Source: a virus
Taxonomy: Duplodnaviria; Heunggongvirae; Uroviricota; Caudoviricetes
Virus record (IMG/VR): IMGVR_UViG_2565956709_000007
Length of the DNA: 46,095 bases
Direction: 5' to 3' (one strand)
Part shown: in pieces, positions 1 through 46,095 of the stretch
How the letters are laid out: each line of letters begins with the position of its first letter
Position numbering within the stretch: position 1 is the first letter of the stretch
Program-made: the position numbers and the translations under genes
The notes under the pieces: generated by a model
Told to the model about the DNA's origin: nothing
What the model saw: the letters and a program-made list of their open reading frames with translations, nothing else
Databases searched by the model: none

Positions 1-1284
1 TTACAGACTTCTGGAAGGTTGCACAGCTCTTACAACACGCGGTTGATCTTCCGCAGCGTCTTCCAGCGCACTTAAATCACGGTCTTTCACTTCTGGCATT
101 TTCAGCGCAGAGATTAAACCAATCACTGAATATGCCATGATCATAATGGCGATCGGATACCAGGATTCCGTCATGGTGCAGAAAATACCCGCCAGGATAG
201 GACCAAAACCGGAAGCGATAAGACCACCAATTTCTTTAGAAATGGCCATCCGGGTAAAGCGGTTTTTACAGCCGAACATTTCTGCCATGGTAATGTTTTC
301 CAGAGCAAATAATCCCAGCACCGCACAGTTATGAATCACAATCAGTGCAACCATAATGGTGCTCGGGGCATAGCTTTTATCTACAATGATAGAAAGCATT
401 GGCCATGCCAGCACAATCGCGGAGGTATTCATAATAATATACGGGATCCGGCGACCAATTTTATCGGATAACCAACCAAGGAACGGAATGGTCATAAAGC
501 CGAGAATCGAACTAATCATCAATGCATCTGTTGGAATTGCTTTGTTAAACAATAACGTCTGCACTAAATAGCCTGCAAGGAAAGTCTGAATTAACCCGGA
601 GTTACCCGCCTGACCAAAACGCAGCCCTGTTGCCAGCCAGAAGGATTTGCTCTGGAACATGCTACCAGCAGGTGCAGGTTTTGCTGTGGGTTGGTTGCTG
701 TCATTAACCTTCTCAAAGACCGGGCTTTCTTTCAGATTCATACGTAACCAGATAGCAAAGACCATCACGACAACGCTCGCCAGGAACGGTATACGCCATC
801 CCCACGCCAGCAGTTCCTCTTTACTGAGAATGAAGAACATAAAGGCCCAGATTGCCGTTGCGCTCAAGGTTCCGCAGTTAGTTCCCATAGCTACAAATGA
901 GGAGATAATTCCGCGCTTACCTTTTGGTGCATATTCCGCCAGCATCGTACCGGCACCGGAAATTTCCGCACCTGCACCCAACCCCTGAATAATACGCAGC
1001 GTCACCAGCAAGATGGGGGCAAAAACACCAATCTGTGCATAGGTCGGTAACACACCAATTAAGGTGGTACAGATCCCCATCATGGTGATGGTAATAAAGA
1101 GCACTTTTTTACGCCCTATTCTGTCGCCCATTTTGCCGAAAATAAATGCTCCGACAATACGCGCCACATAACCTGCACCGTAGGTTCCCATTGCCAAAAT
1201 TAACGCCATTGCCGTTGATGATTCAGGAAAAAATATTTCATGAAACACTAACGCTGCGCCGAGCGAATATAACTGGAAATCCAT
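1..1284 (-). CDS. ydfJ: MFS metabolite:H+ symporter family transporter YdfJ (427 codons; appears to lack the N-terminal cytoplasmic tail of ProP/KgtP-type relatives, consistent with truncation by prophage insertion)
   Basis: ORF-track protein has 12-TM MFS architecture with the DWGWRIPF motif and aligns with ProP/KgtP from about their residue 30; stop codon at 1-3; in-frame stop two codons upstream of the ATG at 1284. Confidence 0.7.
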   Translation of the reverse strand: MDFQLYSLGAALVFHEIFFPESSTAMALILAMGTYGAGYVARIVGAFIFGKMGDRIGRKKVLFITITMMGICTTLIGVLPTYAQIGVFAPILLVTLRIIQGLGAGAEISGAGTMLAEYAPKGKRGIISSFVAMGTNCGTLSATAIWAFMFFILSKEELLAWGWRIPFLASVVVMVFAIWLRMNLKESPVFEKVNDSNQPTAKPAPAGSMFQSKSFWLATGLRFGQAGNSGLIQTFLAGYLVQTLLFNKAIPTDALMISSILGFMTIPFLGWLSDKIGRRIPYIIMNTSAIVLAWPMLSIIVDKSYAPSTIMVALIVIHNCAVLGLFALENITMAEMFGCKNRFTRMAISKEIGGLIASGFGPILAGIFCTMTESWYPIAIMIMAYSVIGLISALKMPEVKDRDLSALEDAAEDQPRVVRAVQPSRSL

Positions 1285-1523
1285 AATTCACAGATGTTTT
1301 TTCTCATTCTGTGGTTTCCTTGGCGCTTTCTAGGTTTTTTCAGATAGTTACATTTTTTCAAAAGCATCCTGAGTTCGATCTTACTATCTATCTGTGGCCT
1401 ATTTCTGTCCCATATATGCCCCAAAAAACACCCCAACAGATAAGCAGTCTTTTCATGGTGTTACGCGTAAAAACAATAACGGCTTGAAATTATTCAATAC
1501 ACTCTCGAAAGTGCATCAGCCAA

Positions 1524-1557
1524 CCGCAGAACGTTATTGCATACAACGTTTCTGCGG
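1524..1557. repeat. Imperfect inverted repeat (12-bp arms, 9-nt spacer, one bulge) with no adjacent T-run
   Basis: ccgcagaacgtt ... aacgtttctgcgg read directly. Confidence 0.4.
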
Positions 1558-2000
1558 CATATCACGAAACGATTACTTAATGACTGGGACTTCAGACCAC
1601 TCAATATCCGGTACAATTATGTATCAACGCAGTTTAACAACACCCTATATTTAATCCAGAGTGCGAGCAACGTTGTCCCTTTCTCTTTTGCACTCTTAAA
1701 ATATACGATTACTTAAGTGAAGATGCTTGACGAATCGCCAAATAAAACATCTTCATCAGCATAAAAATCCATATATGATTGAAAATTTAGTCATTAATAC
1801 CATTCATATCTGAATACTGACCTAATATGCTTACTAACCGTGAGAAATCTTTTTTTTCGACTTAATCACTCGAAATAAACTTTCACTCAATTGAAAACAA
1901 TTAGCTACAATTATCATTGCAATATCAAATCAAACATAACAACTTGCATAAATTCTCATGGGATACAGCATCAGTTGTGCCAAACACATAAGGAATTGAA

Positions 2001-2198
2001 ATGGACGGAGAAAGCTTTAACTTTGATGACAATGATATTGAATTTATTGCTTCAATGTATGCATCATGTAAATTATCAGGAAGTATCGCCCCCATAATGC
2101 ATATAATGGTTAGCATTCCAAAAAATAAGAAAAAACAATTCTACGAACGAGTTGAGCATTATTGTAGTTTATATTCCAATAAAAACCCACCTTCTTAA
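2001..2198 (+). CDS. Hypothetical 65-aa protein in the AT-rich left arm
   Basis: ORF with AAGGA 8 nt upstream of the ATG; no recognisable family. Confidence 0.2.
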   Translation: MDGESFNFDDNDIEFIASMYASCKLSGSIAPIMHIMVSIPKNKKKQFYERVEHYCSLYSNKNPPS

Positions 2199-2901
2199 AT
2201 TCGCTGCATTCTAGTGGATTCCATTAAGAAAACAATGACATACACTCAAACACATCTTTTTTATCAACAGTGAATTTCAGTTCGGCCAGTTTTTACCAGC
2301 TATTATAAAAATAGCATCCATATAAAGTTTTTACCCCACAGGTACAGCTGGCCATTCGATAACCGCACTAAGGAAGTGCCAACACGATATCAGCAAGACC
2401 CGATATTTCTTCCATGCCGCCAGCAACGATGTTAAGGTTAAATTAATTATAAAAAAATATATTATAACTCCATCTTCGCATTAAATTTCAACCTTTAATC
2501 TCCACACGGAACAAGTTGCATAGGTGACTATATTAGGAAAACTTATAACCACCAAAACATTTGCTTTGCAAACAAAAACAGTGACCATTGACTCTAAGAA
2601 AATTCCGATCTATTGTTAGGGTCATCAAAGTTACTTAACAGTATTCCGAAATGAAAATACAAAGCAAGCTAATTGTCTTATTAAACATTATCATTGCATT
2701 TATATTATTTGAGCTTTTAGCTCAAAAATTTGGTTTGAGTACATTATTTTAAAGCAAGATAAACAATATCGGGCACTCTAGTTTTTATAATTAACAATTA
2801 AACGTCCATAAAATGTTATTTACTTTTGTTCGCTATTGTCATATCTTAATATAGTGGCTTACGCCACTCTACTTTCATCACATTTTGTACGTTTATGTAC
2901 T

Positions 2902-2934
2902 CGCCATGAAGCTCTTTCATGGCGATTTTTTATT
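2902..2934 (+). terminator. Rho-independent terminator (10-bp GC-containing stem followed by T6)
   Basis: tcgccatgaa-gctct-ttcatggcga followed by tttttt. Confidence 0.5.
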
Positions 2935-3017
2935 CTTAATCCAAGAACATACTCCCTACCTATAGCAAAATCACTTTTTGAACAAAAGAATAACGTATTT
3001 AGGTAATCATTACGAAT

Positions 3018-3599
3018 TTACCCTATAGGTGCTACTGGCCATTCAATATCCGGTGCAGTTGTTGTATTAACACGGTTCAGCAACACCCGATACTTTTTCC
3101 AGGCTTCCAGCAACGAGTTTTCTTCCTCCGTTGCGATTTCCAGATCTACAGCATCCTGAAGTGGCGCAATATGCTCATTCGCTGCCTGCATCAGGCTGTT
3201 TTTTGTTTCTTCCGCCTCCCGGATCCGGAATAGTTTTTCTGCTTCTGCATCTTTCACCCAGGCTGTGCCGTTCCACTTCTGAAACTCCCCTTCCGGGGAT
3301 AACCAGGTGACATTTTCCGGTAATGAGCCGAGTTCAGAAATAAATAACGCGTCGCCGGAAGCCACGTCATAAACCGTTTTACCCCGATGATCTTCAACGA
3401 GATGCCACGATGACTCATCACTGTTGAAAACAGCCACGAAGCCAGCTGGAATATCTGGCGGTGCAATGTCGGTACTGTTTGCTGGCAGACCTGTATGAGG
3501 CGGAATATATGCATCACCTTCACCAATAAATTCATTAGTTCCGGACAGCAGATTATAAATTTTTATGGTCCGTGGTTGTTCACTCATTCTGAATGCCAT
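3018..3599 (-). CDS. tfa: Tail fiber assembly protein Tfa
   Basis: 193-aa product nearly identical over its length to my recollection of lambda Tfa ([18 protein letters not shown]...); start overlaps the stf stop. Confidence 0.9.
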
Positions 3600-6500
3600 T
3601 ATGCAAGCCTCACAATATAGTTAAATGCGATGTTTTTGACGGTGTTTTCCGCGTTACCAGCAGCGTTAACGGTGATGGTGTGTCCATGTGAACCAATCGC
3701 AACCGAGTGCGTATGCGCACCAATACCGACAGTATGTGCATGTGCACCTGCAGATGCTGCTGTGCCGGACAGCGAGTGGGTATGAGCACCATCTGATGAT
3801 GTCTTCCCTGCATTACGAGTCTGGCCACTACCGCTTGTTGTGCTCATAATCCCCGCGCTTGGATTTGAAATCGCGGTATAACCATTAGGGAAAATGCTCG
3901 TGTTCGTGCCACCAAATGCACCGGAACTCTTGTGTTGGTGCGCACCGGCACTATTTGCGGTCCCGCTAATACTATGGGTATGCGCCCCGGTGTTATTCGT
4001 GGATTTAGTGCCGTAATCAAACGACGATGTGGTTTTCGTCCCCAAATCCGTACTGGATGCGCTGGCGCTGTGGGTATGCGATTTAATGCCATCCTGTTCC
4101 TGAGACAATACGGCACGACCACTGGCGGGCTTGCCCTTAATCGTCCAGCCACGCATATCAGGGATCACGCCTGACGGATAAGCCGCTGCAAGTTTCGGGT
4201 AAGCAGATTTGTCAAAAGTCTGCCCCTGCATCAGGGCATAACCAGACGGAACGGTATCTGATGGCCACGGGATTGGTGCGCCAACTGGGTAGCTTTCTGG
4301 TGGAAGATTTTTCGAGGTATAAACTTCTGCCCAGCCTTCCTCAAAACCATAGCCATCTCTTGAGGAACGGTAGAACAGACCTCCATTTCTGTAATGCGCC
4401 TTCATCTGCAGGGTCCGGCAACTTCCGACTCCGGTATAGAAGTTAACCAGAATATAGGTGTCGCCAGAGCGGGTGACATTGTAAGCGCCTGATTCGGCAT
4501 TCCAGGGAACGCCACCATCCGCATCGGCATATGTATCCGTTGCCCTTCTGGCAAAAGCAGCCACATGCGCGGCGGTTAAAGTGATATCAGTAGAACCATC
4601 AAATGGAACACCGGATATTTTTCTTGCAGTCTGAAGTTTTGTAGCAGTTGCAGCATTACCAGTGGTGTTCTGATTACCCGTAGTGTTTACACCTGGAAGG
4701 TTAATATTTGCAGAACCGTCGAAAACAACTCCACCGATAGATCTTGCCGTCTGCAATTTCGTGGCTGTACTTGCATTACCATTCAATGAACCAGTTAATC
4801 CACCTGTAACAGACAACGGACCTGAAACTGTTCCTCCGGTTGTTGGCAGTGCTCCAATATCTGATGGTGTAGGTTTCTGATGTGAGCTATACATCGTATA
4901 AACAACACCATAGGTAACGCTGGAAGGCTTACTCGCTGAATATGTTGGCGAGGTATAAACAGAAACTGACGCATTTGCAGTACAATCCCAATGGATATTT
5001 ACACTCGTCGCATAATTGCCAATCTCAACGTAAATATCATATGTATCGCCGGATGTGTTGATCCAGGCGAAATTCGTTAATCCGACGGCTGTACGCTTCC
5101 ACAAAGCCCCGGTAATTCCTTTGGGGTTTCCATTGCCTGCTCGTAGAACCAGTTCTGAAATGCCTGCCTGATGTGGGGAACCGACGTTGTAACCAGCGCC
5201 ACCAATCAATGCGATGTAAACGATGGAACTCGCTTGTGGCATGGTAACCGTAGCCAGTTTGAACCACCCAGCCCCGCCAGAGAAAGACATCGTTACTGAA
5301 TTTAAAGTACCAATATCTTTCGGCGTTAATGTTATATCCGCAGTCAATGCTTTTCCGTTAACTTTTCGGTTAGATGGCACCCTGCTATTCGCATTGTCAT
5401 TGGCTGCTTTAACTGCTTTTGGCGTTGCGGCCAGCGATTCACTGGTGCTATCAACAGCACTGCTAAGTTTCACAACACCTTTAGTTGTAAGGCTTGCGTC
5501 TTCCATCGCAACTGCACCGGCAATCTCTTCAGCACGATCAGCAGCAGCTTCCGCACGGGTCGCAGCGGATTCAGCAGCAGTTTTGCTCTGAGATGCTGCC
5601 GTCGCACTGCCTGCCGCCTCTGTTGCCTTCGTGGATGCCGTCGTGGCGCTGCTCTTCGCTGCTGACGCCTGTCTGGTCGCCTCATCTTTTGAAGCAGACG
5701 CAGATGATGCCGATGACGCCGCCGAACTGGCGGACGATGCGGCAGCCGTTTTTGAGGATTCTGCACTGGTTTCCGACGCTTTCGCGTTCGTTTCGGATGT
5801 CTTCGCTGCGGAAGCAGACCTCGCTGCTGCGCTGGCCTGTTCAGTGGCTTCGCCAGCCTTCGTTGTGGCTGTTGAAGCAGACGATGCGGCGCTTTCTGCC
5901 GATTTTCCGGCGGCGGTGGCACTGGCTGAGGCCTGCCCGGCACTTGTTGACGCTGCACTGGCAGACGACGCAGCCGCTGTTTTTGAGCCTGCCGCAGCTG
6001 AGGCACTCTGTTCCGCTGCCGTTTCAGAAGACCTGGCGTTTGTCTCAGACGTTTTTGCCGCCTTCGCAGAATTTGCTGCCGCCGTTGCCGAGGAAGCTGC
6101 GCTGCTGGCGCTCGAGGCTGCGCTCGTTTCTGATGATTTCGCTGCCTCTTTTGAGGCCGCCGCATCCCGGGCTGAGGTGGCAGCTTCTGACGCCTTCGTG
6201 GTCGCGGCGGATGCAGAAGTGGCTGCTGATTGTTGTGACGCTGCCGCATTCGTTTCTGACGTTTTCGCCGCAGCGGCACTGGTAGCTGCCGCGCTTTTTG
6301 AGGACTCTGCAGCAGCAGCACTTTTCGATGCTTCACTGGCCTTTGTTGATGCCGTTCCTGCGCTGGAAGATGCTGACTGAGCCGACGACGCGGCCTGTCC
6401 GGCTGACGTGCTGGCTGCGCGTGCTGAGCCTGCAGCATCAGTCGCATGGGTTGCCGCCTCACGGGCTGATGTGCCGGCATCGCTGGCTGACTTCTTCGCG

Positions 6501-6877
6501 GCTGCCGTGTTCTGTGCCACCGCGGACGCGTTACGCGCCACCTCTTCCACCATCAGTTCAAAACGGCGCAGTGCCTCAGGACGGGCATCATCCTCCGTCA
6601 TGGCACCGAGAAAATTATTCAGCGTACCGGGTCGAGAATCTTCATACACGGTGATGGTCCCGGCATGTGACGGCGGGAATCCCTCCACCAACAGAATAAC
6701 GCTGTACTGCCCGTACTCAACGTCCATGCTGTAACGCCCGGCTTCATCCGGATTTTCTGAGGCAAGCGTGTTCACCACCACCGTGTTGCTGTTACGTTTT
6801 GCTTTCAGCTGGATTGTGCAGTTCTGTACCGGTTTTCCTGTGCCGTCTTTCAGTACACCTGAAATCTTTACTGCCAT
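3599..6877 (-). CDS. stf: Side tail fiber protein Stf, with a long Ala/Ser/Thr-rich repeat region and His-rich C-terminal repeats
   Basis: N-terminus [20 protein letters not shown]... and C-terminus ...[31 protein letters not shown] match lambda Stf; track ORF starts two codons earlier (6883). Confidence 0.85.
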
Positions 6878-6941: not shown

Positions 6942-7541
6942 TCAGAATTTATAACCGACACCCACGATGAAACCGTCAGTGCGCCAGTCACCACTGCCGG
7001 AGCCTTCATAAGCAATATCAATGGCCACGGATTCGGTCGGGTTAAACTGCACGCCAGCCCCCCACGCCAGAGACGTGTTGCTGTGGCGACCGTCATCACT
7101 TCCGGTCAGCACATCGTGCTTTTTCCCCTTGTTGTCAGTTACGCGGAGATAATCCCCGGAGAAAGTCGACACACGGCTGTAAGCCACACCCGCCATCGCA
7201 TACGCGCTGAACCATTCATTCACGCGCACAGACGGCCCCGCCATTACGCTGAACCAGCGGTTACGAACGGAATCTTCATGCCAGCGGGTATCGCTGTAAC
7301 GGGTCAGCTGGCGATTCTTGTCTCCTGCATAGCTGAACGACGTCTCCAGCCCCAGTGTGTCCGTAAACTCATAACGGTATTTCACGTTAATCCCGTTCAG
7401 ATCATCACTGCCGGGAACGTTCGTCGAGGCATGAAGATACCCCGCGCTCAGCGTGGACTGATGTTCAGACGCCCATGCAGGCGCACCGGATACGGCCAGA
7501 CAAATGGCTGCGGACAAAATTGCTGCACAAACTTTACGCAT
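6942..7541 (-). CDS. lom: Outer membrane protein Lom (Ail/Lom family)
   Basis: 199-aa product with signal peptide and C-terminus ...AYEGSGSGDWRTDGFIVGVGYKF as in lambda Lom. Confidence 0.9.
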   Translation of the reverse strand: MRKVCAAILSAAICLAVSGAPAWASEHQSTLSAGYLHASTNVPGSDDLNGINVKYRYEFTDTLGLETSFSYAGDKNRQLTRYSDTRWHEDSVRNRWFSVMAGPSVRVNEWFSAYAMAGVAYSRVSTFSGDYLRVTDNKGKKHDVLTGSDDGRHSNTSLAWGAGVQFNPTESVAIDIAYEGSGSGDWRTDGFIVGVGYKF

Positions 7542-21618: not shown

Positions 21619-21631
21619 CCTGAACCAGGAA

Positions 21632-35130: not shown

Positions 35131-35158
35131 CAGATAAAATAAACCCGCCGAAGCGGGT
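35131..35158 (-). terminator. Rho-independent terminator of the hok transcript
   Basis: acccgc-cgaa-gcgggt with AT-rich run (U-run on minus); a second perfect 9-bp hairpin ggcgaggga-tttc-tccctcgcc lies at 35201-35222. Confidence 0.5.
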
Positions 35159-36804: not shown

Positions 36805-37161
36805 TTATTCAGTTTTGGATTTTGTCACCCTGCGTATCCACGCTTTCCCGTTACGCTCAATCTGAATTAGCTTTTCTATATTTTTTCGCCTTTCCCGTTC
36901 CTCCTGGCGCAAGAGCCTTACATCATCTGCCAGTCTGGTTTCTCTTTTCGCCACAGAGAGCATCCAGTCAAATGGCTCCACAACTGCACCGCAGATTTTA
37001 CAGCGGACCTGACGCTCTTTTTCGTCAACCCGGACAGAAGCGTGATGGCAATATGGTCTTTCCGATGGCTCATAAAGAAAATTAACCTGATTACGAGGGT
37101 CATCCTCTTTTATCGGAAATAAAACGATATTGCTTAACTAATCCTCTGGTTTTATTTCCAT
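36805..37161 (-). pseudogene. Zinc-ribbon protein gene interrupted by an in-frame TAG after codon 7 (amber pseudogene, or downstream/non-canonical start)
   Basis: AGGAG-ATG at 37161, MEIKPED, TAG, then 110 open codons encoding ...PYCHHASVRVDEKERQVRCKICGAVVEPFDWMLSVAKRETRLADDVRLLRQEERERRKNIEKLIQ... Confidence 0.3.
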
Positions 37162-37218
37162 GCTCCTCTCCTTTGATGCGAATGCCAGCGGCAATTGAAG
37201 CCTGATAGCTAATTTCAC

Positions 37219-37641
37219 TCACAGTACCGCCTCCTGAAAATTACCCTGATAGAAAGCCAGTACACGCTGCATAGCTTCGCTCTTCCGGCACTCGCGACAG
37301 ATTATATTCAGGCGCCTGTCGTAGCGGCGTATTTCTCCGTCTGGTAATGACCAGATTAGGTCCGGATCAACCGCAGATGGTTTCTTCGGCTTTGCCCTTG
37401 AGAGCTTTTTACGGGCATTTTGCCAGTCCTTACGCGCCTGTTCAGACGGGAATAACCCGTAACCAGAGTTGTATACATCGCCACTGGCAACCAGCTCTCT
37501 GGCCAGAACGCTCATCAGATATCTTGTTGCCCCAGTTTTAGTTTCCAGTTGTCGTAACGTCTCGCGCCCACTTTGGCGTACGAGTTCAACAACCTGCCCT
37601 TTAATTTTTTCCCGCTCTTCTTGTGTAAAAACTTTTGCCAC
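37219..37641 (-). CDS. Hypothetical protein with HTH-like N-terminus and CxxC motif, downstream of the replication initiator
   Basis: 140-aa ORF; no similarity to DnaC/P-type helicase loaders recognised. Confidence 0.4.
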   Translation of the reverse strand: MAKVFTQEEREKIKGQVVELVRQSGRETLRQLETKTGATRYLMSVLARELVASGDVYNSGYGLFPSEQARKDWQNARKKLSRAKPKKPSAVDPDLIWSLPDGEIRRYDRRLNIICRECRKSEAMQRVLAFYQGNFQEAVL

Positions 37642-37681: not shown

Positions 37682-38752
37682 TTACCCCCTGAAGCCCGGC
37701 GGAATTTCGTTATCCGGTTCAGAAATATGATTCACACAACGCTGGTTGTTCGTGCCGCTTACCGGGAGCAACCAGGGGTTCTCAAAATTCCGGTCCGGTC
37801 CAAAAAACGTCGTCGCTCGCTGAACAAATTCCGTTCCCGTTTTCCCGGTAGCCGCCAAGTATCTTGCGTAACGCCTCACGCCATCCAGCATGGCCTCTGG
37901 TGGCACCCCCTCGCGTAATCTGGCCTTCCAGGCACTGAAAGCGGATTTCTTCGGGTTTGCTCCGGCACGCAACGGGTACTCCCGCCAGACCTGTTCGAAC
38001 ACATCCGGATAATCCACTCGTCCCACAGACTGCCCGGTGTTTTCCGGGACTACCCGATCGGCTTCCCGCTGAATGGCGGAATCGGCTTCGGGCTGCTGCA
38101 GTTGGTGTGATTGCTCCGGCCTTGCGGTCATCACCTGCTGCACAGCGCCCGAATCGGCTTTCAGCGCATACGCTGAATCGGCTTCCGGTGTCGTGCCTGC
38201 TGGCTGACCAAGATTGACGGTCTGAACATCCCCTGCCTGGTTCGTGGCGTTTTTTACGCCATGGACCATAGTGTTTTGATCTTCTTGATCTGTATCTTTA
38301 TCTGTATCTTTATCTGTCGTGACTCGTCGTGACATATGCGTGACATTTCGTGACGCGCCGTGACAATCGCCATTTTGTTCCCGCTTTCTTTCCCTCTCTC
38401 GCTGCGCCCTCTTGCGCTCTGCAGGAGATTTTGCGGTTTGCGAAATATTGCCGTTGTCCTCTTTAAGCACCTGGCGTTTTTCCCATCCAGTGATTAAATC
38501 ACCATCAAGTACCCGCCCCTGCATCGTCTGCAAAATTGAATCAATTACCTCTTCTGTCACGTCGAGCGCACTTGCCAAATCTTCTGTCGTGACCTCAATG
38601 TGACCTCGCGTGACATTTCGTGACGCGCTCACCAGGAGGTGGATATACACTGCCATCACTGTTGCAATTGGCTGCCCTGACACCCTGGCAATTGTTCGCC
38701 ACTTAGGGTCATTTGGCATGTCATGCCATAATCTGAGCCAGGCGTTAGCCAT
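37682..38752 (-). CDS. Replication initiator (O-like) containing the origin iterons
   Basis: ATG 38752 with GAGGTG upstream; two clusters of 10-11-bp spaced CGTGAC repeats inside the coding sequence. Confidence 0.6.
   Translation of the reverse strand: MANAWLRLWHDMPNDPKWRTIARVSGQPIATVMAVYIHLLVSASRNVTRGHIEVTTEDLASALDVTEEVIDSILQTMQGRVLDGDLITGWEKRQVLKEDNGNISQTAKSPAERKRAQRERERKREQNGDCHGASRNVTHMSRRVTTDKDTDKDTDQEDQNTMVHGVKNATNQAGDVQTVNLGQPAGTTPEADSAYALKADSGAVQQVMTARPEQSHQLQQPEADSAIQREADRVVPENTGQSVGRVDYPDVFEQVWREYPLRAGANPKKSAFSAWKARLREGVPPEAMLDGVRRYARYLAATGKTGTEFVQRATTFFGPDRNFENPWLLPVSGTNNQRCVNHISEPDNEIPPGFRG
38317..38364. repeat. Iteron cluster 1 (five CGTGAC repeats at 10-11 bp spacing), preceded by a tandem atctgtatcttt repeat
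   Basis: tgtcgtgactcgtcgtgacatatgcgtgacatttcgtgacgcgccgtgacaa read directly. Confidence 0.6.
38588..38624. repeat. Iteron cluster 2 (four (C)GTGAC repeats; shares the 20-mer cgtgacatttcgtgacgcgc with cluster 1)
   Basis: cgtgacctcaatgtgacctcgcgtgacatttcgtgacgcgc read directly; an inverted copy gtcacg sits about 30 bp upstream. Confidence 0.55.
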
Positions 38753-38823: not shown

Positions 38824-39249
38824 TCAATGCACAGCCACAATATTTCCTGCAGGGCCACCACGATTCATCTGGTTGAAACCAGCGATCGCCACTGCGACAA
38901 AATCATCAGCGTCTCTCACCAGTCGTTCCCGCGTCTCCACTAGTTCCCGAAAATAGGCTGAGCTATGACTGCGCATTCGGGCCACCAGCAGAGGTGGCAT
39001 TGCTTTTTCGATAGCTGGTAACAACGCCTGAATTTTTTTAACCGCATCAGGGGTGTCTTTCTCCACCCAGCGGAAAATTTTCTGAGTATTGCGAGCCAGG
39101 GCTTCCGGATGGCTGTCGTCATACAGTTCCGGGAACGTCATTCCCAGCTCGAAATACGCTTTGGTAATTTTCGCAGCCGGTACTTTTTCGCCGTCCGGAT
39201 GCGCCCAGGCATTCATCGCCATGCGGATGTGTTCATGCTTGATTTTCAT
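38824..39249 (-). CDS. CII-like / YdaT-family regulator (putative)
   Basis: 141-aa ORF whose ATG overlaps the Cro-like stop; position equals cII/ydaT; family tentative. Confidence 0.4.
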   Translation of the reverse strand: MKIKHEHIRMAMNAWAHPDGEKVPAAKITKAYFELGMTFPELYDDSHPEALARNTQKIFRWVEKDTPDAVKKIQALLPAIEKAMPPLLVARMRSHSSAYFRELVETRERLVRDADDFVAVAIAGFNQMNRGGPAGNIVAVH

Positions 39250-39500
39250 GAATCAACTCCCATCAGCTTTTTCGTAGTAGTTTTATTCCTGCCAATAGTT
39301 AAAATTGCATCGGCAGAAAATAATCCGTTTGATGCAAGAGCGATTTTTTCAGCGTAATTTGTTTCGCCGGTATATTCTGTGCGAGGCAATTTTCCGTTAT
39401 CCATCCATTTATAGATTGCTCTTTGGCTGACACCACAAACGTCGGCCACAACAGCAACGCGAACAGTTTTGATTACATCTTCAAGTGTTTTCTGGTTCAT
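39246..39500 (-). CDS. Cro/DicC-like HTH regulator
   Basis: 84-aa product MNQKTLEDVIKTVRVAVVADVCGVSQRAIYKWMDNGKLP... with HTH; divergent from the repressor; GAGGGTGA upstream. Confidence 0.6.
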   Translation of the reverse strand: MNQKTLEDVIKTVRVAVVADVCGVSQRAIYKWMDNGKLPRTEYTGETNYAEKIALASNGLFSADAILTIGRNKTTTKKLMGVDS

Positions 39501-39512
39501 ATCACCCTCACA

Positions 39513-39555
39513 ATGTGAACTTTGAGTACATGCTATAACAGAACTGACAGTACAT
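39513..39555. promoter_or_regulatory. OR-like operator/promoter region between the cro-like and repressor genes
   Basis: Repeated half-sites AGTACAT (39525-39531, 39549-39555) and near-palindrome ATGTGAACTTTGAGTACAT. Confidence 0.4.
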
Positions 39556-39579
39556 TCAAGAGCGAATATCATTGAACTT

Positions 39580-39999
39580 ATGGTTCATGAAGATAAAGCG
39601 CGTAAAGAGTTCGCCAGTAGGCTTGCGCTAGCCTGTGAAAACGCTGGTTATGAACAACATGGAAGGCAGGCAGAAATTGCCCGTCGAATGAAATTAACAC
39701 CAAAAGCGGTTAGCAAATGGTTTAATGGCGAAACAATTCCTCGCCGGGAGAAATTAAGGGAATTAGCAACACTAATAGGAACAACACCAACCTATCTTTT
39801 GGGAGAGGATACAGAAGAAAGTGGACAGGTACGTTTCTATCAGGAGTTAAATCCAAGACAAAAAATCATCATTGACCTTCTGGACGAGCTCCCTGACAGT
39901 GAGACAGATGAACTTTTAAAAACTCTTGAAGAGAAAAAACAGAAGTACAATGCAATTTACGAAGAGTTAGCACGAAAGAAAAAACAAAAAGCCTCTTAA
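39580..39999 (+). CDS. Immunity repressor, DicA/C2-like XRE-family HTH protein (no LexA-type peptidase domain)
   Basis: 139-aa product with N-terminal HTH (QAEIARRMKLTPKAVSKWFNGETIP) and short C-terminal domain; divergent from cro-like gene. Confidence 0.65.
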   Translation: MVHEDKARKEFASRLALACENAGYEQHGRQAEIARRMKLTPKAVSKWFNGETIPRREKLRELATLIGTTPTYLLGEDTEESGQVRFYQELNPRQKIIIDLLDELPDSETDELLKTLEEKKQKYNAIYEELARKKKQKAS

Positions 40000-40074
40000 A
40001 CCAGCATAAATCCGGTAGCGCCTTCCTCCGGGTTTGTGCTTCACTTTATCCCATCTCATTTTTTTACACACAAA

Positions 40075-40120
40075 ATGTACTAAATGTACTTTACAACAAT
40101 GAACACAAAGTACATTATAT
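40075..40120 (+). promoter_or_regulatory. OL/PL-like promoter with operator half-sites driving the early-left (dicB) operon
   Basis: ATGTACT at 40075-40081 and 40084-40090, inverted AGTACAT at 40109-40115, bracketing candidate -35 TTTACA (40090-40095) and -10 CATTAT (40113-40118). Confidence 0.4.
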
Positions 40121-40296
40121 ACCTGCCACCCACCCCGCCCCACAGAATGCAGGGCAATACTTCGAGTTACCAGGCAGTGGTCAGGGGTTAAGTAGCCAGC
40201 CCGAGGCGTAAGAACATGACGGCAGGGTTCAACTTTAATAACTATGCAGCAGGTTTTTGTTCCGCTACCCCGGCGTTAAGGGGAAATGAGGTCAGC

Positions 40297-40452
40297 ATGG
40301 ATACTATCAATCTTGGCAACAGCGAATCTCTGGTATGTGGCGTGTTCCCCAACCAGGACGGTACGTTCACCGCAATGACGTATACCAAAAGCAAAACGTT
40401 TAAAACCGAAAATGGTGCCCGTCGCTGGCTGGAAAGAAACTCAGGTGAGTGA
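40297..40452 (+). CDS. ydfA: YdfA-like small protein (51 aa)
   Basis: MDTINLGNSESLVCGVFPNQDGTFTAMTYTKSKTFKTENGARRWLERNSGE; GAGG 5 nt upstream; first gene of the dicB-type operon. Confidence 0.55.
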   Translation: MDTINLGNSESLVCGVFPNQDGTFTAMTYTKSKTFKTENGARRWLERNSGE

Positions 40453-40453
40453 T

Positions 40454-41029
40454 ATGGATTTCGACACAATCATGGAAAAGGCTTACGAAGAATACTTCGA
40501 AGGCCTTGCCGAAGGCGAAGAAGCTCTCAGCTTCAGTGAGTTTAAACAGGCACTCAGAATAAGAATGTGCTCTCACAATGACGCGGAGCACAAATATGAG
40601 AAGCAAAATCAGACCGCAGAAAATTTTGTTCTGGAACCCGGAGAAACGCTTTTCAAAATTCCCGTTACGTGCCCCATTTGCGGTTTTACATCAGAAGAAC
40701 TTGACGACTCCTGTAACAATCAGGAAACAACCAAGTATGTCGAAGATGATACCGAGTGCGCACGAAGAACGATTATATCCACGAGTCCAAACTCCAGGGC
40801 CAATAAATCTCACTTTGAGAGGGTGATTAATCCACTCCCCCAAACCAATAAAAAAGATGCCGGAGGACAAAAAACCCAATGGAACAACGGGATATCTGTC
40901 AAAAAAAGACGTTCCATTAAAGACAAACAACGCAGCGCCAACAACTGTAAGCGCTTTATACCAGTAATCAATTTTCATGTTCTTAAGCGGATTTATTGGT
41001 GGTTGCGACATTGCTTAATGAATCCTTAA
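40454..41029 (+). CDS. YdfB/YdfC-like protein as one contiguous 191-aa ORF with a CPICG zinc-ribbon motif
   Basis: ATG 40454 two nt after the ydfA stop; N-terminus MDFDTIMEKAYEEYFEGLAEGEEALSF... Confidence 0.4.
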   Translation: MDFDTIMEKAYEEYFEGLAEGEEALSFSEFKQALRIRMCSHNDAEHKYEKQNQTAENFVLEPGETLFKIPVTCPICGFTSEELDDSCNNQETTKYVEDDTECARRTIISTSPNSRANKSHFERVINPLPQTNKKDAGGQKTQWNNGISVKKRRSIKDKQRSANNCKRFIPVINFHVLKRIYWWLRHCLMNP

Positions 41030-41287: not shown

Positions 41288-41346
41288 TTTTCTGGTGACG
41301 TTTGGCGGTATCAGTTTTACTCCGTGACTGCTCTGCCGCCCTTTTT
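41288..41346 (+). ncRNA. dicF: DicF small RNA
   Basis: tttctggtgacgtttggcggtatcagttttactccgtgactgctctgccgcccttttt matches my recollection of E. coli DicF, including the 3' terminator hairpin. Confidence 0.8.
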
Positions 41347-41515: not shown

Positions 41516-41704
41516 ATGAAAACGTTATTACCAAACGTTAATACGTCTGAAGGTTGTTTTGAAATTGGTGTCACTATCAGTAACCCAGTATTTACTGAAG
41601 ATGCCATTAACAAGAGAAAACAAGAACGGGAGCTATTAAATAAAATATGCATTGTTTCAATGCTGGCTCGTTTACGTCTGATGCCAAAAGGATGTGCACA
41701 ATGA
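41516..41704 (+). CDS. dicB: Cell division inhibitor DicB
   Basis: 62-aa product MKTLLPNVNTSEGCFEIGVTISNPVFTEDAINKRKQERELLNKICIVSMLARLRLMPKGCAQ; GAGGA upstream. Confidence 0.8.
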   Translation: MKTLLPNVNTSEGCFEIGVTISNPVFTEDAINKRKQERELLNKICIVSMLARLRLMPKGCAQ

Positions 41705-41892
41705 ATTCAGCATTTGTGCTTGTTCTGACAGTTTTTCTTGTTTCCGGAGAGCCAGTTGATATTGCAGTCAGTGTTCACAGGACAATGCAGGAGTGTATGA
41801 CTGCAGCAACCGAACAGAAAATTCCCGGTAACTGTTACCCGGTCGATAAAGTTATTCACCAGGATAATATCGAAATCCCGGCAGGTCTTTAA
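41701..41892 (+). CDS. ydfD: YdfD-like small membrane (lysis-associated) protein
   Basis: 63-aa product MNSAFVLVLTVFLVSGEPVDIAVSVHRTMQECMTAATEQKIPGNCYPVDKVIHQDNIEIPAGL; ATG overlaps the dicB stop. Confidence 0.6.
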   Translation: MNSAFVLVLTVFLVSGEPVDIAVSVHRTMQECMTAATEQKIPGNCYPVDKVIHQDNIEIPAGL

Positions 41893-41984: not shown

Positions 41985-44456
41985 ATGAGTAAAGTCTTTA
42001 TTTGCGCCGCTATTCCTGACGAACTGGCAACAAGGGAAGAAGGCGCTGTGGCTGTAGCCACAGCCATTGAAGCTGGCGACGCACGCCGTGCTCGAGCAAA
42101 ATTTCACTGGCAATTCCTGGAACATTATCCGGCTGCTCAGGACTGCGCTTATAAATTTATTGTCTGCGAGGATAAACCTGGCATACCCCGCCCTGCCCTC
42201 GATTCATGGGATGCTGAATATATGCAGGAAAACCGCTGGGATGAGGAGTCTGCTTCTTTTGTCCCGGTTGAGACTGAATCCGATCCGATGAACGTCACTT
42301 TTGACAAGCTGGCCCCTGAAGTACAGAACGCTGTCATGGTTAAGTTCGACACATGTGAAAACATCACCGTTGATATGGTTATTAGCGCACAGGAATTGTT
42401 GCAGGAAGACATGGCAACATTCGACGGACATATCGTTGAAGCGTTGATGAAAATGCCAGAAGTTAACGCCATGTATCCGGAGCTTAAGTTGCACGCCATT
42501 GGGTGGGTTAAGCATAAATGTATTCCTGGTGCTAAATGGCCCGAAATTCAGGCAGAGATGCGCATCTGGAAAAAACGTCGCGAAGGTGAACGCAAGGAAA
42601 CCGGAAAATACACGTCTGTTGTTGATCTCGCCCGCGCCAGAACCAATCAACAGTACAGTGAAAATTCAACAGGAAAAATCAGCCCGGTCATTGCTGCCAT
42701 TCATCGCGAATACAAGCAGACATGGAAAACACTGGATGACGAACTGGCCTACGCTCTCTGGCCTGGTGATGTGGATGCCGGAAACATTGACGGCAGCATC
42801 CATCGCTGGGCAAAAAATGAAGTTATCGACAACGACCGCGAAGACTGGAAGCGTATCTCGGCATCAATGCGCAAACAGCCTGATGCCCTTCGCTACGACC
42901 GCCAAACTATTTTTGGCCTTGTCCGTGAGCGTCCGATCGACATTCACAAAGATCCCGTAGCACTGAACAAATATATCTGCGAATACCTGACGACAAAGGG
43001 CGTGTTTGAGAATGAAGAAACAGACCTGGGCACTGTTGATGTTCTCCAGTCATCAGAAACACAAACTGATGCAGTGGAAACTGAGGTATCTGATATCCCA
43101 AAAAATGAAACCGCGCCGGAAGCTGAACCATCTGTAGAGCGTGAGGGGCCGTTCTATTTCCTCTTCGCAGATAAGGACGGAGAAAAATACGGTCGCGCAA
43201 ACAAACTTTCTGGTCTGGATAAGGCACTGGCTGCTGGCGCCACTGAAATCACAAAAGAAGAATATTTTGCCCGAAAAAATGGCACATACACGGGCTTACC
43301 GCAAAATGTAGATACCGCTGAAGATTCAGAACAACCAGAGCCGATAAAAGTTACCGCTGACGAAGTAAACAAAATTATGCAGGCAGCCAATATCATCCAG
43401 CCTGACGCCGATAAGTTGCTTGCTGCATCACGTGGTGAATTTGTTGAAGGGATTAGTGACCCGAATGATCCGAAATGGGTTAAGGGGATCCAGACCCGCG
43501 ATTCTGTGAACCAGAACCAGCATGAATCGGAACGGAACTACCAAAAAGCGGAACAAAACAGCCCAAATGCGTTACAAAACGAGCCAGAAACGAAACAGCC
43601 TGAATCAGTGGCGCAACAGGAAGTGGAAAAAGTCTGCACCGCCTGCGGTCAGACCGGCGGCGGCAACTGCCCTGATTGTGGCGCGGTAATGGGCGACGCA
43701 ACATACCAGGAAACATTCGATGAAGAGTATCAGGTTGAAGTTCAGGAAGATGATCCGGAGGAAATGGAAGGCGCTGAACATCCACACAAGGAGAACACTG
43801 GCGGCAATCAGCATCACGATAGCGATAATGAAACTGGCGAGACGGCAGATCACTCAATTAAGGTGAACGGTCATCCAGAAATCACATCCACCAGCAGGAC
43901 GTGTGACCATCTAATGATCGACCTTGAAACCATGGGAAAAAATCCTGATGCCCCGATCATCTCAATAGGTGCAATATTTTTCGATCCGCAAACCGGAGAT
44001 ATGGGACCGGAATTTAGTAAGACTATCGATCTGGAAACTGCTGGCGGAGTCATTGATCGGGACACCATTAAATGGTGGCTTAAGCAATCACGCGAAGCGC
44101 AATCTGCCATTATGACCGATGAAATCCCGTTAGATGATGCACTGTTACAATTGCGGGAATTTATCGACGAAAACTCCGGTGAATTTTTTGTTCAGGTCTG
44201 GGGAAATGGAGCCAACTTCGACAACACGATTTTGCGCCGTTCATACGAACGGCAGGGGATCCCCTGCCCGTGGCGTTACTACAACGATCGCGATGTACGC
44301 ACAATCGTTGAGCTGGGGAAAGCCATAGACTTCGATGCCAGAACGGCTATTCCATTCGAAGGTGAGCGCCATAATGCACTTGATGACGCCCGTTACCAGG
44401 CAAAATACGTTTCAGTTATCTGGCAAAAACTGATCCCGAGTCAGGCTGATTCTTAA
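41985..44456 (+). CDS. Large early-left protein (YdfE-like, about 823 aa) with C-terminal DEDDh (DnaQ-like) 3'-5' exonuclease domain
   Basis: C-terminal motifs LMIDLETMG (Exo I), WGNGANFDNTIL (Exo II), HNALDDARYQAKYV (Exo III); central CTACGQTGGGNCPDCG zinc ribbon; acidic linker; GAGG upstream of ATG 41985. Confidence 0.5.
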   Translation: MSKVFICAAIPDELATREEGAVAVATAIEAGDARRARAKFHWQFLEHYPAAQDCAYKFIVCEDKPGIPRPALDSWDAEYMQENRWDEESASFVPVETESDPMNVTFDKLAPEVQNAVMVKFDTCENITVDMVISAQELLQEDMATFDGHIVEALMKMPEVNAMYPELKLHAIGWVKHKCIPGAKWPEIQAEMRIWKKRREGERKETGKYTSVVDLARARTNQQYSENSTGKISPVIAAIHREYKQTWKTLDDELAYALWPGDVDAGNIDGSIHRWAKNEVIDNDREDWKRISASMRKQPDALRYDRQTIFGLVRERPIDIHKDPVALNKYICEYLTTKGVFENEETDLGTVDVLQSSETQTDAVETEVSDIPKNETAPEAEPSVEREGPFYFLFADKDGEKYGRANKLSGLDKALAAGATEITKEEYFARKNGTYTGLPQNVDTAEDSEQPEPIKVTADEVNKIMQAANIIQPDADKLLAASRGEFVEGISDPNDPKWVKGIQTRDSVNQNQHESERNYQKAEQNSPNALQNEPETKQPESVAQQEVEKVCTACGQTGGGNCPDCGAVMGDATYQETFDEEYQVEVQEDDPEEMEGAEHPHKENTGGNQHHDSDNETGETADHSIKVNGHPEITSTSRTCDHLMIDLETMGKNPDAPIISIGAIFFDPQTGDMGPEFSKTIDLETAGGVIDRDTIKWWLKQSREAQSAIMTDEIPLDDALLQLREFIDENSGEFFVQVWGNGANFDNTILRRSYERQGIPCPWRYYNDRDVRTIVELGKAIDFDARTAIPFEGERHNALDDARYQAKYVSVIWQKLIPSQADS

Positions 44457-44528
44457 TGTTCAACTGTCGCCGGTTGTGACTGGTATTCTGCAACCGGCGC
44501 TCGTCTAATGTAAGAGATAAAGAAATCG

Positions 44529-44780
44529 ATGAGCGAAGTAATCATGATTGTCTCTCCCGGCAAATGGGTATCCGAAGAGCAGTTAATTGCGCTGAAAGGA
44601 ATAAAAAAAGGTACGTTAAAAAAGGCCCGGGAAAAATCGTTTATGGAAGGAAGGGAATATAAGCATGTCGCTCATGACGGTATGCCATGGGATAACAGTC
44701 CATGCTTTTACAACCTGGAAGAAATTGATCGCTGGATTGAGCGCCAGGCATCAGCGAGACCAAGACGTCATCTTACTTGA
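44529..44780 (+). CDS. xis: Excisionase (Xis-like)
   Basis: 83-aa basic product with GREY-containing region, immediately upstream of int. Confidence 0.55.
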   Translation: MSEVIMIVSPGKWVSEEQLIALKGIKKGTLKKAREKSFMEGREYKHVAHDGMPWDNSPCFYNLEEIDRWIERQASARPRRHLT

Positions 44781-44799
44781 CTAAAAGCCACACTAACTA

Positions 44800-46095
44800 A
44801 TGAGAGAAGTTGAAATGAAATATCCGACAGGCGTGGAAAACCATGGAGGGAAATTACGTATCTGGTTTGTTTATAAAGGCGTAAGAGTCAGGGAAAACCT
44901 GGGGGTTCCTGACACAGCAAAAAACAGGCGCGTTGCAGGTGAACTACGCTCCTCTGTTTGTTACGCAATAAAAACTGGTGTTTTCGACTATGCAAAACAG
45001 TTTCCCTCCTCACGCAATCTGGAAAAATTTGGTGAGGCCCGACAAGATTTAACCATAAAAGAACTGGCTGAAAAATTTCTGGCACTGAAAGAAACTGAAG
45101 TCGCCAAAACATCACTCAACACATACCGTGCCGTCATCAAAAATATCCTGAGCATAATCGGTGAAAAAAATCTTGCCTCATCGATTAATAAAGAAAAATT
45201 ACTGGAGGTTCGTAAAGAGTTACTGACTGGATACCAGATCCCCAAAAGTAACTATATTGTTACACAACCAGGGAGATCGGCTGTAACTGTAAATAATTAC
45301 ATGACAAATCTTAACGCCGTGTTCCAGTTTGGTGTTGATAACGGTTACCTGGCAGATAATCCGTTTAAGGGGATCTCGCCATTAAAGGAATCAAGAACCA
45401 TTCCGGATCCTCTTTCGCGGGAAGAATTTATCCGTCTTATCGATGCGTGCAGAAATCAGCAAGCAAAAAATTTATGGTGTGTTTCTGTTTATACTGGCGT
45501 TCGCCCTGGTGAGCTGTGTGCACTTGGATGGGAGGACATAGATCTGAAAAATGGAACAATGATGATCAGGAGAAATTTAGCAAAAGACCGTTTCACGGTA
45601 CCAAAAACACAGGCGGGAACCAATCGGGTCATTCATCTTATTAAGCCAGCAATCGACGCTCTCCGGAGTCAGATGACATTAACGAGACTGAGCAAAGAGC
45701 ATATCATTGATGTTCACCTCAGAGAGTATGGCAGAACAGAAAAACAAAAATGCACCTTTGTTTTTCAACCTGAAGTGTCAGCGAGAGTAAAAAATTATGG
45801 TGACCATTTTACCGTTGACTCAATAAGGCAGATGTGGGACGCAGCGATAAAACGTGCCGGACTCCGCCATCGAAAATCATATCAGTCGAGACATACTTAT
45901 GCCTGCTGGTCGCTGACAGCTGGTGCTAACCCGGCATTTATAGCAAACCAGATGGGCCATGCAGATGCGCAAATGGTATTTCAGGTATACGGAAAATGGA
46001 TGTCTGAAAACAATAATGCACAGGTAGCTTTGTTAAATACACAGTTAAGCGAGTTTGCCCCAACCATGCCCCATAACGAAGCAATGAAAAATTAA
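44800..46095 (+). CDS. int: Tyrosine site-specific integrase
   Basis: 431-aa product with catalytic region VRPGELCAL (R), HQSRHTYACW (H-x-x-R), MGHADAQMVFQVYGKW (H...Y); last gene before the window end. Confidence 0.85.
   Translation: MREVEMKYPTGVENHGGKLRIWFVYKGVRVRENLGVPDTAKNRRVAGELRSSVCYAIKTGVFDYAKQFPSSRNLEKFGEARQDLTIKELAEKFLALKETEVAKTSLNTYRAVIKNILSIIGEKNLASSINKEKLLEVRKELLTGYQIPKSNYIVTQPGRSAVTVNNYMTNLNAVFQFGVDNGYLADNPFKGISPLKESRTIPDPLSREEFIRLIDACRNQQAKNLWCVSVYTGVRPGELCALGWEDIDLKNGTMMIRRNLAKDRFTVPKTQAGTNRVIHLIKPAIDALRSQMTLTRLSKEHIIDVHLREYGRTEKQKCTFVFQPEVSARVKNYGDHFTVDSIRQMWDAAIKRAGLRHRKSYQSRHTYACWSLTAGANPAFIANQMGHADAQMVFQVYGKWMSENNNAQVALLNTQLSEFAPTMPHNEAMKN

Follow-up and report, generated by a model that had tools for sequence, protein, structure and literature searches.

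A probably complete lambdoid prophage of the Tritos/mEp460_ev081 group at the Qin site in ydfJ

The 46,095-nucleotide stretch of viral DNA recorded as IMGVR_UViG_2565956709_000007 (hereafter the window, at its full length) carries genes familiar from Qin, the defective prophage of Escherichia coli K-12, and raises the question of whether it holds a working phage genome or another remnant. We consider it about 85% probable that the window represents a single, complete 44.8-kb lambdoid temperate phage genome integrated at the Qin site, at codon 28/29 of ydfJ. The prophage spans approximately 44.8 kb, comprising positions 1287-46095 and about 48 nt past the window end. Judged by protein identity, the element belongs to the Tritos/mEp460_ev081 phage group. 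It is an already known kind of object: near-identical copies are annotated in RefSeq, and functional Qin-like phages (Tritos and mEp460_ev081) have been published, with discussion of them as living kin of Qin (PMC9928086; PMC10448788).

Protein families were assigned with Pfam and PHROG, RNAs with Rfam, and tRNAs with ARAGORN and Rfam. The names of RusA, K (a C40 tail peptidase), Lom and the holin follow the RefSeq annotation of the E. coli E04 chromosome and protein identity to mEp460_ev081 (hereafter ev081) and K-12. Six-frame translation gave a 427-residue open reading frame (ORF) on the minus strand, minus-strand late genes, divergent small helix-turn-helix (HTH) genes at around 39.5 kb, and a plus-strand block ending with the integrase gene, the stop codon of which supplies the final base of the window. 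The initial annotation had placed the two ends of the window at the stop codons of ydfJ and of the integrase gene, and the frames at 1-1284 (minus strand) and 44815-46095 (plus strand) agree with it. RefSeq gene calls mapped onto the window are open frames throughout, except for one annotated pseudogene. The modules follow a lambda-like order: attachment (att) site, int and xis, early left operon, immunity, replication, Q, lysis, cos and terminase, head and tail. The GC content is 35% immediately inside the ydfJ junction and 52-60% over the tail genes.

Insertion into ydfJ

The ydfJ-side junction and the genes for integration and excision are as follows.

1-1284, minus strand: ydfJ', the 3' 427 codons of a major facilitator superfamily transporter gene (455 residues at full length), cut by the prophage; 'incomplete; missing N-terminus' in RefSeq (E04)
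1276-1286, no strand: att core GAAATCCATAA, 11 bp, at the ydfJ-side junction; it includes the ATG (Met29) that starts the truncated ORF
44529-44780, plus strand: excisionase (PF06806, DUF1233), 100% identical to that of ev081 and Tritos
44815-46095, plus strand: tyrosine integrase of the IntQ type (Arm-DNA-bind_2 and Phage_integrase), 99.3% identical to that of ev081 and Tritos

The att evidence is a four-way comparison of both prophage junctions, attP and attB. GAAATCCATAA was found again in E04, 37 nt beyond the integrase stop codon, and is followed there by the reverse complement of the first 84 nt of ydfJ. When the two junction halves (one from the window, the other from E04) were joined, a 455-residue YdfJ was restored; its Met29, encoded within the core, corresponds to the ATG of the truncated ORF. 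Of the interrupted gene, 427 codons make up the 3' piece and 28 codons (84 bp) the 5' piece. The initial annotation had noted that YdfJ lacks its N-terminal tail, had ascribed this to insertion and had called for att direct repeats beyond the window; the 28 lost codons were indeed located across the prophage in E04, and the repeats proved to be the 11-bp core at both junctions, the far one also read in E04.

The rebuilt 427-nt empty site is 100% identical to contiguous ydfJ-rspB sequence. This uninterrupted site is present in 2006 of the 5426 complete E. coli genomes, prophage-free engineered K-12 strains among them; the K-12 derivatives BLK9 and BLK16 both match at 100%. Most of the remaining genomes match the rebuilt attB in two separate places, the sign of an occupied or rearranged site, which puts occupation or rearrangement of the ydfJ site at ∼62% of complete E. 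coli genomes. On the phage side, attP was rebuilt from the right end of the window, 48 nt from E04 and the phage left end of the window; this attP lies uninterrupted in the virion genome of ev081, where 128 of 132 positions match, and recurs in Tritos with one core mismatch. ydfJ is a documented prophage site with an att of 18-19 bp (Nakamura et al. 2021, PMC8112680), and the 11-bp core falls within this longer att of the ydfJ prophages (PMC8112680). Four sequence features concur on an insertion within ydfJ: the att core, the 84-bp 5' segment displaced from the gene, the empty site and attP in phage genomes. The phage would have entered at codon 28/29 by Campbell-type recombination, and past 46095 the expected order is TTTAATATTTATCAAATAGTTGACACGTATGACTCTT, GAAATCCATAA, the reverse complement of the first 84 nt of ydfJ and then rspB.

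Both window ends match thousands of E. coli chromosomes. The whole window forms one alignment with the E04 chromosome at 99.86% identity (62 mismatches, 1 indel), between ydfI-ydfJ and rspB-rspA. The ydfJ locus of O157:H7 often holds clusters of two to four prophages (PMC8112680), and the present genome is a mosaic of modules seen in different phages, as would be expected if the window were an assembly chimera or a tandem two-prophage cluster like those of O157:H7. We regard such an origin as highly improbable and rejected it. Only one int, one terminase set and one immunity region occur in the window, its size suits a lambda-type head, and the same 46.1-kb arrangement occurs end to end in the independent complete genome of E04, with copies bearing insertion sequences (IS) in five other genomes.

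Structural, lysis and early modules

The 21 genes from the terminase small subunit to Tfa are all full length and share 92-100% protein identity with ev081, except for Stf.

3018-3599, minus strand: TfaQ-like tail fibre assembly protein (PF02413), 93% identical to K-12 TfaQ; an IS009 Rfam match (3058-3256, minus strand) lies inside the gene
3599-6877, minus strand: side tail fibre Stf (PF08400 and Collar domain), the C-terminal part 92% identical to K-12 StfQ
6942-7541, minus strand: Lom/Ail outer-membrane protein (RefSeq annotation), 96% identical to Lom of ev081
7612-11025, minus strand: tail tip attachment protein J, with six gpJ domains (Pfam), full length, 97% to ev081
11086-11733, minus strand: tail tip assembly protein I (Pfam Lambda_tail_I)
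11631-12374, minus strand: tail tip assembly protein K (RefSeq annotation, C40 family peptidase)
12380-13078, minus strand: tail tip assembly protein L (Pfam Phage_tail_L)
13088-13417, minus strand: tail tip assembly protein M (Pfam Phage_min_tail)
13417-16482, minus strand: tape measure protein H (TMP_2 and Tape_meas_lam_C), 99.4% to ev081
16454-16783, minus strand: tail assembly chaperone T (PF06894/PF06223, the G/T pair), open in the -1 frame across the end of G
16792-17178, minus strand: tail assembly chaperone G (PF06894/PF06223, the G/T pair)
17239-17982, minus strand: tail tube protein V (Pfam Phage_TTP_12)
17994-18395, minus strand: tail terminator U (Pfam Phage_tail_U)
18392-18970, minus strand: Z (Pfam Minor_tail_Z)
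18982-19257, minus strand: head-tail joining protein of the Gifsy-2 family (PF13856), 99% to ev081
19250-19573, minus strand: cement/decoration protein (PF09956), 99% to ev081
19660-21687, minus strand: fusion of a ClpP-type prohead protease and the major capsid protein (CLP_protease and Phage_capsid_4), full length, 98.8% to ev081
21632-23140, minus strand: portal of the lambda family (PF05136), 98.6% to ev081
23140-23352, minus strand: small head-tail adaptor, 100% to ev081
23349-25451, minus strand: terminase large subunit (TerL; GpA_ATPase and GpA_nuclease)
25451-25945, minus strand: terminase small subunit (TerS; DUF1441)
25946-26140, minus strand: packaging-site (cos) region upstream of TerS, in which the deposited mEp460 genome ends meet at 25970/25971

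I, K, L and M are each full length with 92-99% identity to ev081; the corresponding values are 97-100% for V, U and Z and 99.4% for the terminase subunits. Stf is a mosaic, aligning with its ev081 counterpart in two pieces at 75-89%. The initial annotation had called the structural and packaging genes lambda-type. This holds for the set of modules and fails for the head and the small terminase subunit, which are of the mEp460/Gifsy-2 type. Between about 26080 and TerS, the sequence is conserved and differs little from that of ev081 and mEp460. Exact cos ends were not adopted from the mEp460 record, which begins at an ATG and may have arbitrary ends, and only the regional conservation is claimed; the ev081 record carries a short terminal duplication. 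Inspection of the G-T region revealed no canonical lambda slippery heptamer upstream of the G stop codon. GGGAAAT at 16788, the sole lambda-like heptamer, was discarded as a slip site, being located past that stop codon.

Late control, recombination and lysis are encoded between the virion genes and the early region.

27722-28186, minus strand: Rz, intact
27784-27966, minus strand: Rz1 lipoprotein embedded in Rz, lipobox VVGC, intact
28485-29018, minus strand: lysozyme R (PF00959), 90% identical to K-12 RrrQ
29393-29608, minus strand: EssD/EssQ-like holin, 90% identical to K-12 EssQ
32235-33056, minus strand: late-gene antiterminator Q (PF03589, E 2e-54), upstream of the holin; 98.5% identical to ev081 Q and 40% to K-12 YdfT
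33053-33427, minus strand: RusA resolvase (RefSeq annotation)

The replication and immunity genes are of the Tritos type, different from those of K-12 Qin and ev081.

37219-37641, minus strand: DUF977 'Ren-like' protein (PF06163, phrog_142), 94% to Tritos
37682-38752, minus strand: replication initiator/DnaD-like loader with a DnaD-like C-terminus (phrog_3729, E 2e-257), 98.9% to Tritos
38824-39249, minus strand: YdaT/CII-like protein (PF06254, phrog_163), 98.6% to Tritos
39246-39572 (39500 by the RefSeq start), minus strand: Cro-like HTH protein (phrog_35), 99% to Tritos
39516-39561, no strand: operator-like repeats, two copies of GAAC-N5-AGTACAT, between the repressor and cro-like genes, with a promoter-like site at 39544-39572
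39580-39999, plus strand: 139-residue prophage repressor of the DicA type (HTH_3 only), 100% (139/139) identical to Tritos CI and 29% to K-12 DicA
40074-40121, no strand: operator-like repeats, two inverted ATGTAC and one GAAC-N5-AGTACAT, with a PL-like promoter-like site at 40090-40118, upstream of the ydfA-dicB operon

The repressor and cro-like genes are divergent, and GAAC-N5-AGTACAT is common to both control regions, where it lies over promoter-like sites and marks putative operators. From their positions, the repeats at 39516-39561 and 40074-40121 may be OR-like and OL-like operators, respectively; for 40074-40121 an operator role is suggested by analogy to dicBp (PMC10448788).

The leftward operon carries the following genes in front of xis and int.

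40297-40452, plus strand: ydfA, 94% identical to K-12 YdfA
40412-41029, plus strand: a 205-residue ORF overlapping the end of ydfA, with a phrog_35040 match over its full length
41289-41341, plus strand: DicF small RNA (sRNA), Rfam 76.7 bits, 100% identical to the 53-nt K-12 DicF
41516-41704, plus strand: dicB, 100% protein identity to K-12
41701-41892, plus strand: ydfD, 100% protein identity to K-12
41985-44456, plus strand: 823-residue exonuclease with a C-terminal DEDDh domain (PF16473, Rv2179c-like, 3'-5'; phrog_2082), 98.7% to Tritos

The dicBF operon (ydfA, DicF, dicB and ydfD) is present, with its leftward promoter predicted to be under repressor control. The ydfB/ydfC stretch is rearranged: ydfC is absent, 40454-40555 within the region of the 205-residue ORF encodes the first 34 residues of YdfB, and RefSeq calls a partial ydfB only. 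The first 48 residues of the 205-residue ORF match the small family phrog_2061, and the remainder is an unrelated 170-residue tail. By collinearity, K-12 ydfE is a 5' fragment of the 823-residue exonuclease gene. The exonuclease is often labelled 'exodeoxyribonuclease VIII' in phage records; PF16473 is the sole Pfam match passing the cut-off, and no gene for a single-strand annealing partner was seen in the operon.

Viability, induction and accessory genes

The initial annotation had proposed a complete lambdoid prophage, and this was upheld: the virion, packaging, lysis, Q, replication, immunity and int/xis genes are all full length. Genes of known essential role share 88-100% protein identity with plaque-forming phages. 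Compared with E04, 42 of 44,811 prophage positions differ, as against 21 of 1284 in the ydfJ piece. Because the prophage is so much more conserved than the flanking host gene, the comparison points to recent horizontal spread. Twenty of the 42 differences are located in a 680-bp stretch (26146-26824) between cos and the DUF1398 gene, a cluster suggestive of a small recombined patch. In five other genomes, the same prophage is present at no less than 99.8% identity over the early half of the window, each copy with an IS insertion (IS2 in strain 53 and in OZ121084; IS421 in strain 205; ISEc22 in strains 61 and 64). Thus, five of the six genomes matched at this level have an IS, and only E04 and the window copy are IS-free carriers. 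Since the essential genes are intact and near-identical to those of particle-forming phages, the spread appears recent and no IS has inserted, we predict that the prophage probably still yields infectious particles.

Two genes of the early region bear on this prediction.

35942-36363, minus strand: degenerate small accessory gene with an amber TAG at 36253-36255 and later frame breaks; RefSeq 'frameshifted; internal stop'
36360-36536, minus strand: small acidic ORF, open frame (RefSeq annotation)
36529-36711, minus strand: small acidic ORF, DUF7167, open frame (RefSeq annotation)
36805-37222, minus strand: Zn-ribbon-like small gene with a weak PF08271 match, interrupted by an amber TAG at about 37130-37132

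The initial annotation had counted one amber-interrupted small ORF in an otherwise apparently intact prophage; the count rises to two small accessory ORFs. The gene with TAG 36253-36255 is degenerate in phage vB_EcoS-640R1 as well and has no match in the ev081 or Tritos genomes, because of which it is probably dispensable. At the second amber, alignment with vB_EcoS-640R1 shows a GAG codon within a single 137-residue ORF; RefSeq cuts 36805-37222 into two 'hypothetical proteins', one of them starting at ATC.

The alternative is a recently inactivated cryptic prophage, in which an early amber ORF or a missense change blocks the lytic cycle and which is kept, like Qin, only for DicBF, Hok/Sok, Lom and similar functions on the host side. 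Several points weigh in its favour and against a complete, viable phage. Amber stops interrupt two small early-region ORFs whose dispensability is a prediction, most near-identical copies bear IS2, IS421 or ISEc22, suggesting long residence as a prophage, and the induction signal is not identifiable. Missense defects are possible, and the far att junction lies outside the window and was taken from the near-identical E04, not from the source genome. We nevertheless judge a cryptic prophage unlikely, given that the known-essential genes are full length at the identities to plaque-forming phages cited above, that the amber-hit genes are small and accessory, the first of them without a match in ev081 and Tritos, and that the prophage is far better conserved than the flanking host gene, as recent horizontal spread would have it.

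For the viable phage that we favour, the induction route was not found, and this too counts against the favoured reading. Pfam detected no S24 peptidase/cleavage domain in the 139-residue repressor. In the Gifsy phages, the cognate (Rem-like) antirepressor gene is controlled by LexA. The LexA box CTGT-N8-ACAG has 0 matches in the window vs 0.55 expected by chance, so that nothing here speaks for an SOS-controlled antirepressor. A tblastn search with K-12 Rem gave no homologue, and at the rem position (34787-35140, between hok and ydfU) the sequence is AT-rich and includes the hok terminator but no plausible ORF; a non-homologous antirepressor may nonetheless be encoded. No ImmA homologue is present; the Tritos ImmA/XRE gene, which adjoins hok there, has no counterpart in the window. 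In K-12, the antirepressor Rem controls DicA; dicBp is unresponsive to mitomycin C and is reported to be derepressed by urea and high temperature (PMC10448788). Tritos is not induced by ciprofloxacin or trimethoprim and makes virions spontaneously (PMC9928086). The initial annotation would have taken a lack of excision or particles upon mitomycin C induction as refuting an intact prophage. This test is unsafe, because the repressor has no S24 domain, the window has no LexA box and the homoimmune Tritos is not induced by ciprofloxacin or trimethoprim. In practical terms, DicA-type immunity of this kind should not be tested with SOS inducers.

In the mechanism that we propose, the short DicA-type repressor would keep the prophage silent, probably via GAAC-N5-AGTACAT-like operators at the cro-like gene and upstream of the leftward operon (ydfA-DicF-dicB-ydfD-exo-xis-int). 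Derepression would open the rightward operon, encoding Cro, the CII/YdaT-like protein, the replication initiator, RusA and Q. Readthrough under Q would then reach the tRNAs, holin-lysozyme-Rz/Rz1, a terminase of the cos type, and head and tail genes of the mEp460 and lambda types, respectively. Induction would probably be spontaneous or antirepressor-driven, rather than by RecA cleavage. More tentatively, we speculate that phages of the Tritos-immunity group go lytic by a non-SOS signal, in which the DicA-type repressor has a partner that is neither Rem nor ImmA, or that the TolA-domain-III lipoproteins described below block Tol-dependent entry of colicins or phages; this is a doubtful proposal. 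The partner could be a small unannotated early ORF or a factor acting in trans. If the proposal is true, the window, with neither Rem nor ImmA, would be a minimal natural system for finding the repressor partner.

The other features of the window are accessory or small.

1287-3017, no strand: phage arm beside att, 35% GC filler with two decayed tfa 3' ends and an orphan 65-residue ORF
2001-2198, plus strand: the orphan 65-residue ORF, in the low-GC arm by att; RefSeq hypothetical
26498-26704, minus strand: YbcW-like small ORF; phrog_657 is among the basis for the gene pair at 26498-27402
26992-27402, plus strand: YdfO-like DUF1398 gene (PF07166), 95% identical to K-12 YdfO
28188-28361, minus strand: 57-residue ORF with one transmembrane segment, in the 300-bp gap between the lysozyme gene and Rz
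29074-29388, minus strand: YdfR-like DUF1327 gene, 65% identical to K-12 YdfR
29860-30234, minus strand: TolA-like lipoprotein 1 (PF06519, TolA C-terminal domain III, E 1e-14)
30406-30834, minus strand: TolA-like lipoprotein 2 (PF06519, TolA C-terminal domain III, E 2e-23)
30945-31135, minus strand: STnc100-family sRNA match, Rfam 114 bits (gathering score 47); a RefSeq 'partial hypothetical' overlaps it on the opposite strand
31832-31908, minus strand: tRNA-Arg(UCU), downstream of Q (ARAGORN, Rfam)
32016-32091, minus strand: tRNA with anticodon CAU, tRNA-Ile per RefSeq, downstream of Q (ARAGORN, Rfam)
33440-34489, minus strand: YdfU/DUF968, 86% identical to K-12 YdfU
34491-34769, minus strand: 92-residue ORF; phrog_1212 is cited for the stretch from RusA through YdfU to this ORF
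35228-35552, minus strand: hokD/mok toxin gene region, hok at 35228-35383, 96% identical to K-12 HokD
35378-35552, minus strand: sok, Rfam 111.7 bits

Rfam matches in the window are DicF (41290-41341), sok, STnc100, IS009 and the two tRNAs. The tfa 3' end occurs in three direct copies (1590-1691, 2330-2429 and 3017-3116), namely the real tfa and two decayed downstream remnants, with 35%-GC filler between; they look like stacked relics of successive tail-fibre cassette replacements. The orphan ORF at 2001-2198 has no match in Pfam, PHROG or PADLOC, and a PADLOC defence scan covering ten candidate morons returned nothing beyond a generic DEDDh match on the exonuclease. The 57-residue ORF at 28188-28361 may be a relic of a replaced DUF2514-type Rz, the type of K-12 RzpQ and Tritos. 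The TolA-like lipoproteins are paralogues with lipoboxes VAGC and IIGC; their genes separate the holin gene from the Q/tRNA region, and ev081 has ORFs that match them at 100%. Their domain content suggests that these products of 29860-30234 and 30406-30834 could be morons blocking Tol-dependent entry of colicins or (filamentous) phages; a literature search returned nothing specific on prophage lipoproteins with a TolA domain.

Comparison with Qin and related phages

The initial annotation had taken the element for a relative of the defective K-12 Qin on the strength of signature genes (DicF, DicB, YdfA/D, hok and YdfR-, YdfO- and YdfU-like genes). Computed identities to K-12, exact for DicF, support this, as do ten collinear blocks, the same att site and the same integrase. 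The reference was Qin of E. coli K-12 MG1655 (1632277-1652745). The ten blocks (ydfJ/att junction, tfaQ/stfQ, ydfO, rrrQ, ydfR/essQ, ydfU, hokD, ydfA/B, dicF-dicB-ydfD-ydfE and intQ) are 85-99.8% identical and account for 7868 of the 20,469 bp of Qin (38%). The ydfJ insertion point and the integrase are the same, with the 3' 1160 nt of int 99.8% identical to the surviving K-12 intQ remnant, and the dicF-dicB-ydfD-ydfE block is 98.5% identical. Qin, in contrast, measures only 20.5 kb and has no head, tail or replication genes; a nohA fragment is all that is left of its terminase, and IS2 interrupts both int and ydfE. Its immunity is of another type (DicA 29% identical), and it carries rem, relBE, csp genes and pinQ, unlike the window. 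tblastn with the K-12 proteins found no match in the window for RelBE, CspB/F/I, GnsB, PinQ, YdfK, FlxA or YdfV. The window is therefore not Qin plus its missing genes, since this other Qin cargo is without counterpart. Given the ten collinear blocks and the cargo lacking a counterpart, K-12 Qin is, on sequence comparison, what deletions have left of such a phage, some of its modules having been exchanged. The dicBF, ydfD, hokD, ydfU, ydfO and lysis genes of K-12 Qin are then ordinary parts of a working phage, of which the window is a convenient IS-free example. The value of the finding is mainly that of a clean negative: it is correct and ordinary, ydfJ being already a known prophage hotspot.

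Tritos is prophage 3 of the adherent-invasive E. coli strain LF82 (OV696610; Misson et al. 2023, PMC9928086). Its spontaneous release amounts to ∼3x10^6 genomes per mL; imaging showed a siphovirus, and the phage forms plaques on MG1655 hsdR- (PMC9928086). It shares DicF, DicB, YdfD, HokD and YdfU with the window, and its portal, capsid, tape measure and J are 97-99.6% identical. It differs in TerS (42%), TerL (88%), Q (41%) and a DUF2514-type Rz, and has other tail fibres with a Pin invertase, csp, gnsB and ynfN morons and the ImmA/XRE gene by hok, none of which is in the window. ev081 (LR597641) is described as a functional temperate phage from infant faeces (PMC10448788). Its RusA (100%), Q (98.5%), both TolA-like ORFs (100%), Int (99.3%) and Xis (100%) are nearly those of the window and its attP is the same, whereas its immunity is of the K-12 DicA type with a rem antirepressor gene, its replication initiator is another one, and a Pin invertase and a ydfK-like gene lie near att. 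Pin invertase, absent from the window, is present in K-12 Qin, Tritos and ev081.

mEp460 (NC_019716), a structural relative of ev081, has only the late genes in common with the window, and its integrase is different. The PPydfJ prophages of Shiga toxin-producing E. coli are likewise lambda-like, inserted in ydfJ and flanked by a short att, with attB defined from an empty-ydfJ strain (PMC8112680). They are set apart by description: they carry type III secretion effector loci (nleC, nleG) and are often clustered, and neither applies to the window (PMC8112680). Compared with lambda itself, the window has a DUF1441 TerS, a single ClpP-capsid fusion, a repressor without an S24 domain, no identified N homologue, a single initiator and DUF977 instead of O and P, and a different integrase and att. 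It resembles lambda in gene order, in TerL and portal, in the tail genes Z, U, V, G, T, H, M, L, K, I and J, in lom, stf and tfa, in Q, and in the holin-endolysin-Rz/Rz1 lysis cassette.

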